In this document: piece by piece, positions 33,409 to 58,746 of the stretch
Layout of the letters: each line of letters begins with the position of its first letter
Position numbering within the stretch: the first letter of the stretch is position 1
DNA from: Escherichia phage PBECO4
Strand: one strand, 5' to 3'
DNA: 64,000 bases
Sequence record: KC295538
Program-made: the position numbers and the translations under genes
The notes under the pieces: model-generated
Seen by the model: only the letters and a program-made list of their open reading frames with translations
Told to the model about the DNA's origin: nothing
Databases searched by the model: none

Positions 33409-33433
33409 AGAAAAATGCCCCGAAGATCGGGGC
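33409..33433 (-). terminator. intrinsic terminator-like hairpin
   Basis: gccccg-aagat-cggggc preceded on plus strand by A-run (T-run on minus). Confidence 0.45.
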
Positions 33434-33549
33434 AGTACTAAAATGATTTTGTACCAAAAGGGGAATAAGAACAAAATGAAAATATAATAACGCATCATTA
33501 TTATGTAAGGGAGGAAAGTAACATGATATGTTAACCATTTCTGGTATAT

Positions 33550-35691: not shown

Positions 35692-35922
35692 TTATTCCTT
35701 TGTATATGCATATGGTAAAAATAAAACCTCTGCATTAGGAATGCATTGTGCCAATCCTTCAACAATAGATTTGTTTTTATTACATTGCCAAACTTTAGTA
35801 ATTTTATGTCTAAATACTTTTTTATCAACGACAATCCAGTACATGTCCATTTTAACAGTACTGTTATCAGATGGTGTTAGTAAAGTATCGATGTCATATG
35901 TATCAAAGATTTTGTCGTTCAT
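35692..35922 (-). CDS. hypothetical protein
   Basis: 76-aa ORF; competes with overlapping 35529..35834 frame whose C-terminal half looks like a small membrane protein. Confidence 0.4.
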   Translation of the reverse strand: MNDKIFDTYDIDTLLTPSDNSTVKMDMYWIVVDKKVFRHKITKVWQCNKNKSIVEGLAQCIPNAEVLFLPYAYTKE

Positions 35923-36181
35923 ATAATCTCCTAATAAAATATTCTCGATTCTCTCTTATATACCCAGATACACAGTTAGTTGTGGCTTGGTTAGTGAATG
36001 AAATCTCACTATTGGACACGCCATTTGCATCACACAAAGGACATATTCCCATGTACTTGGGGGTCGGGTAGGTGTCCAATTTGTATTTTTCATTACACAC
36101 CATGTACTGCTGTGGCAATACATCTAATATTATTTCATATTCTTCATCAAACACCTTGAAGCATACCCAACATTTACCCAT
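35903..36181 (-). CDS. small zinc-finger protein
   Basis: 92 aa; CWVC...CPLC. Confidence 0.45.
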   Translation of the reverse strand: MGKCWVCFKVFDEEYEIILDVLPQQYMVCNEKYKLDTYPTPKYMGICPLCDANGVSNSEISFTNQATTNCVSGYIRENREYFIRRLYERQNL

Positions 36182-36665
36182 TATAGTTTTCCTTTAACAC
36201 CGTTCTTATATATTCGAATGTTTTAACAAACCAATCATGTTCGTCGGATACATCTACAACTTTACCACCATATACATAGTAATGGTAAAAAGGTAACTTG
36301 CTTTTTCTTAATCTTTCGGCTAACTCTGGATTTTGAATTATCTTAGCACAAATAGCATCTTGAATAATAGAAATACAATCATCCGTCATTTCAATTCGAT
36401 CATGCATATATTTGTTAGCGGCTGCTTTTGCTGCTGCACCAGATACTTTTCTAAGGTCATCATGTTTTTGCCCAGTTAAAAACCAAAAGTAAAATGTTTC
36501 AACTGAAGGGAACCAACCATATGGTTCAAGTGTGAAGCTATGCGAAGAAAAGTTAGATAGATCTCTACCTAACTTAGTTCTAGCTTTACTATAAATGTTA
36601 ATGTGTCGGTATCCATCATCAGTAGGGTCAATAAAGTCAAATGACTCTTCTGGGAACTCAAACAT
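36174..36665 (-). CDS. NADAR/YbiA-like (DUF1768-type) protein
   Basis: 163 aa; alignable by eye to E. coli YbiA: INIYS...LSNFS...PSVETFYFW, later GAAAKAAANK and YVYGG. Confidence 0.7.
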   Translation of the reverse strand: MFEFPEESFDFIDPTDDGYRHINIYSKARTKLGRDLSNFSSHSFTLEPYGWFPSVETFYFWFLTGQKHDDLRKVSGAAAKAAANKYMHDRIEMTDDCISIIQDAICAKIIQNPELAERLRKSKLPFYHYYVYGGKVVDVSDEHDWFVKTFEYIRTVLKENYNG

Positions 36666-36667
36666 AA

Positions 36668-37021
36668 TTATTCTTCTTCTCCTGAAGGAGTTCCACGTAG
36701 TTTGTCAAAATCAACCCAAATACCATGCTGATTTTTAAATCTACATTTCTCATAGTACCAGCTATAGTCAGTTTCAACACCTTGTGATATAGATCTAACA
36801 CTACAATCATACATATTATATAAATGATCCCTGACAATATACGTATTAATCAGAATAACAAACAATACAATAATACCACAGACTTTAGGATGATCCATAA
36901 TCAAATCTAGAACGGAACTCGTTTCAGTACTGTCAATTTTACTACGACCGATGGCAACAGCTTTCAGTACTGCTAATGATACCAGTAATGAAATAACAAG
37001 AACACTCAAATAAATTAGCAT
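36668..37021 (-). CDS. hypothetical membrane protein
   Basis: 117-aa ORF; two hydrophobic helices. Confidence 0.5.
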   Translation of the reverse strand: MLIYLSVLVISLLVSLAVLKAVAIGRSKIDSTETSSVLDLIMDHPKVCGIIVLFVILINTYIVRDHLYNMYDCSVRSISQGVETDYSWYYEKCRFKNQHGIWVDFDKLRGTPSGEEE

Positions 37022-39872: not shown

Positions 39873-40562
39873 TTAATCCATTTTAAGCTTGTTTAGACAG
39901 AATGAAATCTGGATTGCTTCACGTGCTGCATCAAACAGTGGGTGATGTAACTCCAACCCATTAATCCCACACGTATTTACATATGTGATAAATTTATCCA
40001 ACTGTACCGAAACGATTTCATCCATTTCAATACGAGCTTCTTCATTCAATAAACGTTTCAATGTGCGTGCATTTTCAGGTGCATCATACTTCCACAACTC
40101 ACCAGCGTTCATTAGTTTTAAATGGTTTGCTTGTAAAATGCTACAATCGAAGTTACATCCGTTACCCCAGACTGAATGAGGAACTTCTTCACCATAATCA
40201 TTGTAACGTAATTCTTTCCAGAAATCAACAATACTACTGTATGCAAAAAATCGTCGTGATTGACCATTCGGTCCATACAGTTCAGGTGCTTTGAGTTTCA
40301 TAGTACTGGCAACTTCAGCATATGCATTAGGGTATTCTTTCTGACATGTATTCATCCAAAAATCCATTGCACCTGCGTCTGATTTTAAACCAGTAGCAAC
40401 TTGATCCTGGTATGGTAATTTAATATATAAGAACTGACGAATGTCATTTTCAGGTTTACTTGGAACTACTACTGCTGCGTAATTTGGGATAATAATATCA
40501 TAACCGGAAAGTTCAGGTGTTCCAAGAGCTTCAATATCAACACTAATATGACGACGTTTCAT
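39873..40562 (-). CDS. DEDDh 3'-5' exonuclease (DexA-like)
   Basis: 229 aa; Exo I SVDIEALG, Exo II VWGNGCNFDCSIL, Exo III HHPLFDA. Confidence 0.7.
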   Translation of the reverse strand: MKRRHISVDIEALGTPELSGYDIIIPNYAAVVVPSKPENDIRQFLYIKLPYQDQVATGLKSDAGAMDFWMNTCQKEYPNAYAEVASTMKLKAPELYGPNGQSRRFFAYSSIVDFWKELRYNDYGEEVPHSVWGNGCNFDCSILQANHLKLMNAGELWKYDAPENARTLKRLLNEEARIEMDEIVSVQLDKFITYVNTCGINGLELHHPLFDAAREAIQISFCLNKLKMD

Positions 40563-40641
40563 AAGTTAGTTCCTTATCTGTACATTAAAAAGAGTGCGTT
40601 TTCAATAAGATTATATTAAAAACGCACTCATATGTCAACTA

Positions 40642-57683: not shown

Positions 57684-58746
<1,063 letters not shown>

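Follow-up and report, generated by a model that had tools for sequence, protein, structure and literature searches.

All NADAR proteins assayed so far hydrolyse guanine-linked ADP-ribose (G-ADPr) on DNA or RNA (PMC11543638, PMC11125620, PMC11833690), and YbiA-type NADARs, together with some others, also cleave the cytosine-linked form (C-ADPr) (PMC12945103). It is only recently that phage NADARs were shown to counter, as enzymes, the ADP-ribosylation of DNA by DarT1 toxins, and few lineages have been tested. The T4 protein AdfN (gp30.3), as well as AdfN-Bas32 and AdfN-Bas60, remove ADP-ribose (ADPr) from guanine in DNA and defeat DarTG1, and AdfN permits the replication of T-even phages on DarTG1 hosts (PMC11825919). 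The AdfN mutants E36A and K43A and a C-terminal truncation each only partly rescue phage RB69 on DarTG1 (PMC11825919). The residue carried by the last beta-strand differs between groups: a histidine in the "phage NADARs (gp30.3 proteins)", a glutamate in YbiA and an aspartate in the DarT1-linked proteins (DarG1/BC4488) (PMC11543638, PMC11125620). Viral NADARs are also known in architectures with SLOG, Macro and DUF4326 domains, which Iyer, Burroughs, Aravind et al. have described (PMC7824862, PMC9503650); these two papers contain no biochemical data and, in the text available, do not name the PBECO4-type phage group.

We analyzed a gene in a stretch of 64,000 nucleotides (nt) of Escherichia phage PBECO4 (sequence record KC295538), referred to below, at its full length, as the window. 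The gene encodes a NADAR-like protein of 163 amino acids (aa) which is probably an ADPr-linked hydrolase used in phage-host conflict. Its position is as follows:

36174 to 36665, minus strand: NADAR-like coding sequence, 163 aa plus the TAA stop; stand-alone divergent NADAR-fold protein of the PHROG 652/11222 family.

The open reading frame (ORF) runs from ATG to TAA over 163 codons. Its boundaries are exact and are those already given in the preliminary description of this DNA, to which the strand is added here. Comparison with the orthologue of Klebsiella phage K64-1 (72% aa identity) gave proportions of non-synonymous and synonymous differences of 0.18 (pN) and 0.74 (pS), and a ratio of non-synonymous to synonymous substitution rates (dN/dS) of about 0.07 with dS saturated. 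This low ratio indicates a real coding gene under purifying selection.

Detection of the NADAR relationship

Searches with the single 163-aa sequence found no match in Pfam, NCBIfam or, with phmmer, the PDB, and PADLOC returned no match for the protein. The Pfam scan, extended to E<=10, contained no match to PF08719 (NADAR) or PF08010, and gathering thresholds were not reached. BLASTP found no similarity with T4 gp30.3 and only a non-significant one with E. coli YbiA (E=0.18, 18% identity). As single-sequence searches are empty, detection rests on profiles and structure. A profile built from 28 homologues of the protein (A1) was compared to all PDB sequences and gave two matches only, the P. 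nicotianae protein PnNADAR (8bau, E 1.2e-4) and YbiA (2b3w, E 5e-4). Aligned to YbiA with hhalign, the same profile reached a probability of 90.6% (E 1.3e-6) over residues 20-125. Five of the 28 sequences have a weak match to PF08719 (best E 0.024), and the sub-threshold Pfam matches of the relatives concern Phage_30_3 (PF08010, best E 5e-7) more often than NADAR. The scale of these matches can be judged from the relative P0029, which scores 20.4 bits with PF08010 against a gathering threshold of 36 bits, T4 gp30.3 itself scoring 237 bits. PHROGs assigns the protein to phrog_652 (E 6e-45) and to phrog_11222; the function of both is given there as unknown, and their profiles include extra regions of about 115 aa on the N-terminal side or about 145 aa on the C-terminal side.

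The link to gp30.3 was refined by profile-profile comparison of 175 domain sequences of the window family with 108 sequences of the gp30.3 family. The two families align with a probability of 98.0% (E 1.5e-13) in local mode and 98.7% (E 3.7e-15) in global mode, residues 19-157 of the query corresponding to T4 1-152. On these profiles gp30.3/AdfN, rather than YbiA, is the closest relative. The best explanation of the profile results is that the window family would form a large phage-borne branch without a Pfam model, sister to the "histidine-type" phage NADARs of gp30.3/AdfN.

The predicted structure was then considered. The AlphaFold2 model computed with A1 has a mean predicted local distance difference test score (pLDDT) of 89 and a predicted template modelling score (pTM) of 0.82, low confidence (pLDDT < 50) being limited to residues 1-9. 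Compared to the PDB with Foldseek, this model gave three matches and nothing else with meaningful probability. In BFVD the top Foldseek matches are family members, one of them a "DprA-like" fusion from an Erwinia phage; next come proteins named "NADAR domain", from giant viruses and phages. Model and Foldseek results together make the fold assignment secure, and we regard membership of the NADAR fold and superfamily as almost certain. BFVD also contains fragment entries of 92 aa and 45 aa, with 91% identity.

The preliminary description had read the protein as NADAR/YbiA-like from the letters alone. Family membership is confirmed by the matches of the family profile to 8bau and 2b3w and by the hhalign results against YbiA and gp30.3. 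The same description would have dropped this reading had profile searches shown no NADAR domain; PF08719 itself does not match the protein, and it is the family-profile and profile-profile searches that find the relationship. The alignment by eye with YbiA which it proposed is reproduced by hhalign in its N-terminal part (INIYS/INFYS, LSNF/FSNF and FPSVE/WPTSEHYF). Its "G-rich loop" and "YWG-like" pairings are unsupported, since there is no confident alignment with YbiA past residue ~125 and since the gp30.3 alignment puts H128 of "HYYVYGG" at the catalytic position of the last strand. The pairing of "YVYGG" with "YWGDGG" of YbiA was obtained only in a low-confidence forced global alignment, and the gp30.3-anchored register was preferred.

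Active-site residues and comparison with characterised NADARs

Conservation was expressed as column counts over 175 family representatives. The following elements of the protein were compared to the residues of characterised NADARs:

36585 to 36617, minus strand: D17-K27 (DGYRHINIYSK), family-specific N-terminal motif; D in 169, G in 174, H in 169 and N in 175 of 175.
36549 to 36557, minus strand: S37-N38-F39, the SNF motif universal in NADARs; conserved in 158-172 of 175.
36498 to 36500, minus strand: E56, corresponding to the catalytic Glu (T4 AdfN E36, PnNADAR E43, E. coli C7 NADAR E88); 175 of 175.
36477 to 36479, minus strand: L63, at the position of the canonical Lys (T4 K43, Pn K50, EcC7 K95), seven residues after the Glu (register E+7); not Lys here.
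36411 to 36440, minus strand: G76-K85 (GAAAKAAANK), counterpart of the "AKKLGR" diphosphate loop; aligned to AVAKKLGR of 8bau.
36276 to 36284, minus strand: H128-Y129-Y130, with the His of the last beta-strand; H in 173 of 175, aligned to H123 of the gp30.3 family (108 of 108); strand 129-132 in the model.
36204 to 36233, minus strand: W145-R154, start of the C-terminal helix; W in 172 and R in 153 of 175.

The core catalytic residues of a NADAR, Glu and His, are both in this list. The SNF motif aligns to FSNF of YbiA, FLSNF of 8bau and LSNF of gp30.3, and the alignment of E56 to the catalytic Glu holds for T4 gp30.3, 8bau and YbiA alike, the role of this residue being described in PMC11543638 and PMC11825919. 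In the family the diphosphate loop has an invariant G76 (175/175), followed by K80 (173/175), G83 (163/175) and a basic residue at position 84 (K/R, 127/175), K80 being the equivalent of K75 in Pn and K115 in EcC7. R154 is aligned in the global hhalign comparison to R149 of T4 gp30.3, itself conserved in 105 of 108 sequences; AdfN needs its C-terminal helix to be fully active (PMC11825919). Other features belong to the family. D17, G18, H21 and N23 are near-invariant, and the D-G-x-x-H-I-N motif which they form is absent from gp30.3 and only partial in YbiA (INFYS). A W-Y-W aromatic cluster after the Glu is likewise a family feature, further near-invariant polar residues over the ~175 diverse representatives include K108, and column 67 is semi-conserved as basic (K 44, R 16; K67 in the window protein). 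The canonical Lys, which is missing at L63, binds diphosphate and adenine in other NADARs.

As a whole the protein resembles gp30.3/AdfN (PF08010) most. Both are stand-alone proteins of about 150-165 aa from large lytic myoviruses, and they share the SNF motif, the Glu (E56/E36), a G-x-x-A-K loop, the His of the last strand (H128/H123) and the Arg of the C-terminal helix (R154/R149). The window protein differs from gp30.3/AdfN in having no equivalent of the K43 lysine, no pairwise similarity and no PF08010 match; moreover its family adds the D-G-x-x-H-I-N-I-Y-S-K segment and the W-Y-W cluster after the Glu, and it has a two-strand hairpin (129-138) where gp30.3 has a loop. AdfN-Bas32 and AdfN-Bas60, from T5-like phages and Vequintavirinae, are also orphan phage NADARs outside the T-even group, and they show that independent phage NADAR lineages can neutralise DarT1 (PMC11825919). 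Unlike the window protein, these two were found by a DELTA-BLAST conserved-domain search and are placed with archaeal and bacterial NADAR clades (PMC11825919); from this mode of detection and this placement they appear to be canonical NADAR-domain proteins, which sets them apart, on the description given in that paper, from the protein studied here.

Resemblance to the other groups is lower. DarG1 proteins (BC4488 family; E. coli C7, G. lovleyi 8bat) have an Asp on the last strand, the canonical Lys (K95), an N-terminal extension and an adjacent darT1, none of which is present in the window protein or its locus: only about 16 residues precede the core, with no DarG1-like extension. The window protein is not a DarG1. 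YbiA (PF08719) has a C-terminal Glu with a D-x-x-W-G-D-G loop, and the canonical Lys; in the window protein the Lys is missing, the last-strand Glu and the loop are absent and HYYVYGGK is found instead. YbiA is an N-glycosidase of riboflavin intermediates, also active on G-ADPr and C-ADPr, and its gene is a chromosomal housekeeping or SOS-operon gene. To judge from these motifs, the window protein is not a YbiA-type enzyme. Concerning the viral NADAR-SLOG-Macro-DUF4326 fusions (PMC7824862, PMC9503650), relatives of the window protein have exactly those architectures and the window protein differs from them in being a bare domain. Given the shared architectures, its branch is very probably among the jumbo-phage NADARs of these surveys.

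Gene neighbourhood, distribution and domain partners

The gene is packed tightly within a long array of co-directional genes, ~110 of the roughly 118 ORFs of the window being on the minus strand. Among the window genes are those for topoisomerase II, a clamp loader, RNase H, dihydrofolate reductase (DHFR), a C5 cytosine methylase, an NT5C nucleotidase, TelA, a sigma-factor-like protein with sigma-70 region 3 and a homologue of translation initiation factor 3 (IF3). The last one (58243-58746, minus strand) has the Pfam domains IF3_N and IF3_C and matches E. coli InfC with phmmer at 8.5e-20. The 3 kb surrounding the gene match those of the Escherichia phages ECO103 4-12-1 and EC22.5-2 with 100% identity, and those of slurp01, Sharanji, E9.1, G17 and other phages of about 350 kb with 99.6-99.9%; the record of G17 assigns this phage to the genus Asteriusvirus. 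From this near-identity, the window is part of a jumbo coliphage of the PBECO4/121Q type (Asteriusvirus-type, E. coli). A protein 98% identical to ours (P0001) is recorded at NCBI as Escherichia coli (AU458_RS01190), on a contig of 335,553 bp; its source is most likely a complete jumbo-phage genome inside a bacterial assembly. The paper on the structural proteome does not mention, in its main text, the phage phAPEC6 orthologue gp139c; this neither supports nor opposes packaging of the protein in the virion.

One orthologue is interrupted. In phage G17 (MK327931; locus L004, 1172-1662) a T-run has lost one base, ATATATTTG to ATATA-TTG, at residues 84/85 (window equivalent about 36411-36413), and the gene is thereby split into annotated ORFs of 71 aa and 92 aa. 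Either a true pseudogene or an error of sequencing may lie behind this split. The case is reminiscent of phage RB69, whose adfN is frameshifted, which renders RB69 sensitive to DarTG1.

The elements surrounding the gene are the following:

36668 to 37021, minus strand: upstream neighbour, 117 aa, containing two hydrophobic segments; 2 nt separate its end from the NADAR-like ATG, and it is syntenic in K64-1 and Munch.
35903 to 36181, minus strand: downstream neighbour, 92 aa, with CxxC...CxxC spacing, zinc-ribbon-like; its ATG (36181) overlaps the NADAR-like stop by 8 nt.
40610 to 40638, minus strand: promoter-like site with the sigma-70 consensus (TTGACA-17-TATAAT), the sole 12/12 match, ~4 kb upstream on the strand of the gene.
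33416 to 33434, minus strand: GC-rich hairpin and T-tract, located downstream of the gene block; candidate intrinsic terminator.

The upstream protein, which has a short W/Y-rich C-terminal tail, has no significant Pfam match, and a functional link between it and the NADAR-like gene is unproven. Its counterparts in K64-1 and Munch are located at 2598-2960 of locus L005 and 2614-2991 of locus L006, respectively. RefSeq labels the K64-1 orthologue of this upstream gene "WWE domain-containing protein"; Pfam gave no WWE match in either protein and the label was not used. WWE domains bind ADP-ribose in eukaryotes. The downstream CxxC...CxxC protein has no Pfam or family match, and the 8-nt overlap of its ATG with the NADAR-like stop suggests translational coupling. 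As for transcription, the total of promoter-like sites in the window is not above that of shuffled sequences, and only the site at 40610-40638 stands out. It overlaps a 16-bp hairpin with T-tract (40592-40638, minus strand), between the TelA-like gene and an exonuclease gene, and this region may be a terminator/early-promoter junction heading the block which contains the NADAR-like gene. The promoter and the downstream terminator could fit an early transcription of the block by the host RNA polymerase, and it is possible that the NADAR-like gene makes use of them. The exonuclease ORF (39873-40562, minus strand), of the Rv2179c-like 3'-5' type, is located 3.2 kb upstream of the NADAR-like gene and on its strand. 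A distant family member of 333 aa, P0155, is a fusion of Rv2179c-like and NADAR-like domains, the former of which weakly matches the window exonuclease (phmmer 4e-4); this single "Rosetta-stone" fusion can be taken as a hint of a functional link between exonuclease and NADAR-like proteins.

The family is large. Searches with its profile gave 2,088 representatives of 50%-identity clusters at E<=1e-3 (1,648 at E<=1e-10), and tblastn identified 545 phage records with a match. By the first word of the organism name these are distributed as follows: Salmonella 196, Vibrio 72, Escherichia 65, Klebsiella 61, Erwinia 48, and others; carriers include phages of the Det7/SFP10 type (about 155-160 kb) and many jumbo phages. 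Among the matches listed (60 of 545), 59 have no functional name, mostly "hypothetical" with one "virion structural protein" and a few unannotated, and one is called "N-glycosidase". A pattern-limited scan of one genome for each of 185,579 prokaryotic species found 11 loci only, located in phage-like arrays of small co-directional genes. Within the window, the family hidden Markov model run on all six-frame ORFs found no paralogue, retrieving only the NADAR-like gene itself.

Domain partners of the relatives were then considered. The 174 best representatives comprise 103 stand-alone proteins and 71 with extensions. The Pfam partners found in 87 multidomain relatives are mainly DUF4326 (25), YAcAr SLOG (18) and DprA-like (10) domains, followed by Macro (6), DUF488-N3a (6), a second NADAR (1) and the Rv2179c-like exonuclease (1). 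Similar functions appear next to the gene in other genomes: the neighbours at the prokaryotic loci include Macro (2), DUF488-N3a (2), NADAR (1) and AAA_28 (2), and a gene for an ADP-ribosyltransferase (ART; ADPrib_exo_Tox) abuts the homologue in a phage-like contig of 117 kb (locus L007). Salmonella phage Munch carries, about 600 nt downstream of the orthologue, an ADP_ribosyl_GH gene (ARH/DraG-type, PF03747, E 2.7e-66; L006, 4111-5076). The window yielded no equivalent of this ARH gene, so that the set of enzymes removing ADPr is not the same in related jumbo phages. The fusions and neighbours of the window family point to ADP-ribose biology. In the window itself, phmmer comparison of all fusion extensions to the ORFs retrieved no DUF4326, SLOG or Macro partner, the exonuclease ORF being the sole match. 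The Pfam scan of the 118 window ORFs gave no ART or ADPr-related family among the matches listed (25 of 39 families), and the same is true of the immediate neighbours.

Proposed activity, alternative readings and significance

From the fold and the conserved residues, the protein would be a stand-alone N-glycosidase that binds the ADP-ribosyl moiety and cleaves the bond between ribose C1'' and nitrogen. The distal ribose would be flanked and acted upon by E56 and H128, in the way in which E43 and E125 flank it in the structure of PnNADAR with ADPr (PMC11543638). With the canonical Lys missing, the diphosphate would be held by K80 and further basic residues (K27, R34, K67 or K85). The gene would be expressed from an early or accessory block. 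By analogy with AdfN, ADP-ribose put by host DarT1-like toxins on guanines of the phage DNA (or RNA) would be stripped off, so that replication proceeds. This more specific activity, base de-ADP-ribosylation in nucleic acids, of the AdfN type, countering host DarT1-like toxins, is proposed tentatively, as a serious possibility. The preliminary description had suggested that a phage copy could reverse DNA ADP-ribosylation by toxin-type defence systems, an idea that seems reasonable with AdfN as its direct precedent.

Several observations weigh against the hydrolase activity proposed here, and particularly against its AdfN-type form. Column 63, that of the canonical Lys, is K or R in only 15 of 175 sequences of the window family (S 43, L 40, G 40, K 14) compared to K in 104 of 108 of the gp30.3 family; without this Lys the E. 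coli C7 NADAR cannot hydrolyse G-ADPr efficiently, and K43A weakens AdfN-T4 (PMC11543638, PMC11825919). In the diphosphate loop the window clade has A83 and N84 in place of the Gly-Arg of the family, with K85 adjoining: the loop reads AKVLGRK in Salmonella phage Munch and AKAAA(E/N)K in K64-1 and the window, A-K-A-A-A-N-K being given for the group of the window, Asteriusvirus and K64-1. Among the genes detected in the 64-kb window there is none for an ART, DarT, Macro, SLOG or Nudix protein. From the fusions with SLOG, Macro and DUF4326, Iyer/Aravind argue that phage NADARs mostly process soluble ADPr derivatives and not macromolecular adducts (PMC9503650). Finally, a literature search found no published assay of the branch to which the window protein belongs and no paper naming the NADAR-like protein of the PBECO4-type phage group. 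The absence of the canonical Lys, the D-G-x-x-H-I-N motif and the altered diphosphate loop of the window clade taken together mean that the substrate might not be guanine-ADPr. We consider it unlikely that the branch is functionally distinct from the characterised NADARs, with a specificity for another ADPr linkage (adenine, thymine, cytosine, RNA) or for a soluble ADPr-derived immune signal.

The main alternative, which draws on the domain partners, is a hydrolase of soluble, low-molecular-weight ADP-ribose derivatives, that is, a counter-defence enzyme that destroys a signal. Candidate substrates would be the signals or toxins of host TIR, SIR2 or ART proteins (cyclic ADP-ribose isomers, ADP-ribose-1''-phosphate) or by-products of RNA repair dependent on nicotinamide adenine dinucleotide. 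The SLOG (YAcAr/DprA-like), Macro, DUF4326 and DUF488-N3a fusions and the Macro, DUF488, NADAR and AAA_28 neighbours agree with it; such associations are read in the two surveys as soluble-ADPr processing in phages (PMC9503650, PMC7824862), and the altered diphosphate-binding residues (no canonical Lys; a window clade without Gly-Arg) would suit a different ligand geometry. However, every NADAR assayed acts on base-linked ADPr in DNA or RNA (PMC11543638, PMC11125620, PMC11833690, PMC12945103), the literature search found no demonstrated NADAR activity on a soluble immune signal, and the window protein is stand-alone, no partner domain having been found among the window ORFs; we hold this alternative to be somewhat unlikely. 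The protein might also erase modifications made by an ART of the phage itself, limiting or timing a phage-directed ADP-ribosylation of host or phage macromolecules rather than countering a toxin. One relative adjoins an ART gene in the 117-kb phage-like contig, 30.3 is about 3 kb from alt in T4, and the NADAR/ART co-expression of T4-like phages has been proposed to form writer/eraser "toggles" (PMC9503650). Such a role is nevertheless very unlikely here: ART adjacency was seen in just one of the contexts examined, no ART was detected within the window, and the demonstrated role of T4 AdfN is against host DarT1 (PMC11825919).

The protein could also be a catalytically weak or inactive binder, which sequesters an ADPr-containing ligand or blocks a host protein; the family as a whole has lost the canonical Lys, and the window clade the Gly-Arg as well. 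Phage sponges and toxin-binding counter-defences are well known, and AdfA and AdfB bind DarT (PMC11825919, PMC11481870). But E56 and H128, plus D17, H21, N23, K80, K108 and R154, are near-invariant among the representatives, which is typical of an enzyme active site and makes a mere binder highly improbable. Lastly, a housekeeping N-glycosidase of the YbiA type, acting on intermediates of the riboflavin pathway or on another nucleotide metabolite and without any defence role, could be imagined from the location of the gene among genes of nucleotide metabolism and replication (DHFR, NT5C, topoisomerase, RNase H) and from the annotation "N-glycosidase" of one phage homologue. This is scarcely credible for a protein without the last-strand Glu and the D-x-x-W-G motif of YbiA, from a family closer to gp30.3 and nearly confined to phages (545 records against the 11 prokaryotic loci of the pattern-limited scan), with no riboflavin genes seen nearby.

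The NADARs of jumbo phages and their fusions were already described computationally, and counter-defence by phage NADARs is experimentally established. In terms of its sequence, the window protein is a divergent member within the known NADAR kind, not a new kind, and the novelty that remains would lie in the differences of its active site. The present analysis provides both a fold and a probable activity for a mostly "hypothetical" family which comprises about 2,100 clusters (50% identity) and which no Pfam or NCBIfam model covers. In practice the gain is a correction of annotation for a widespread phage family, which will not surprise the specialist. If the protein is active on DNA adducts, counter-defence of the AdfN type extends to jumbo coliphages, to phages of the Ackermannviridae type and to many Vibrio, Erwinia and Klebsiella phages, some of which are candidates for therapy. 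If instead the altered active site means another substrate, the family could reveal a new ADP-ribose-based immune signal or modification together with its eraser, and a new enzymatic anti-defence activity widespread in jumbo and Ackermannviridae-type phages.

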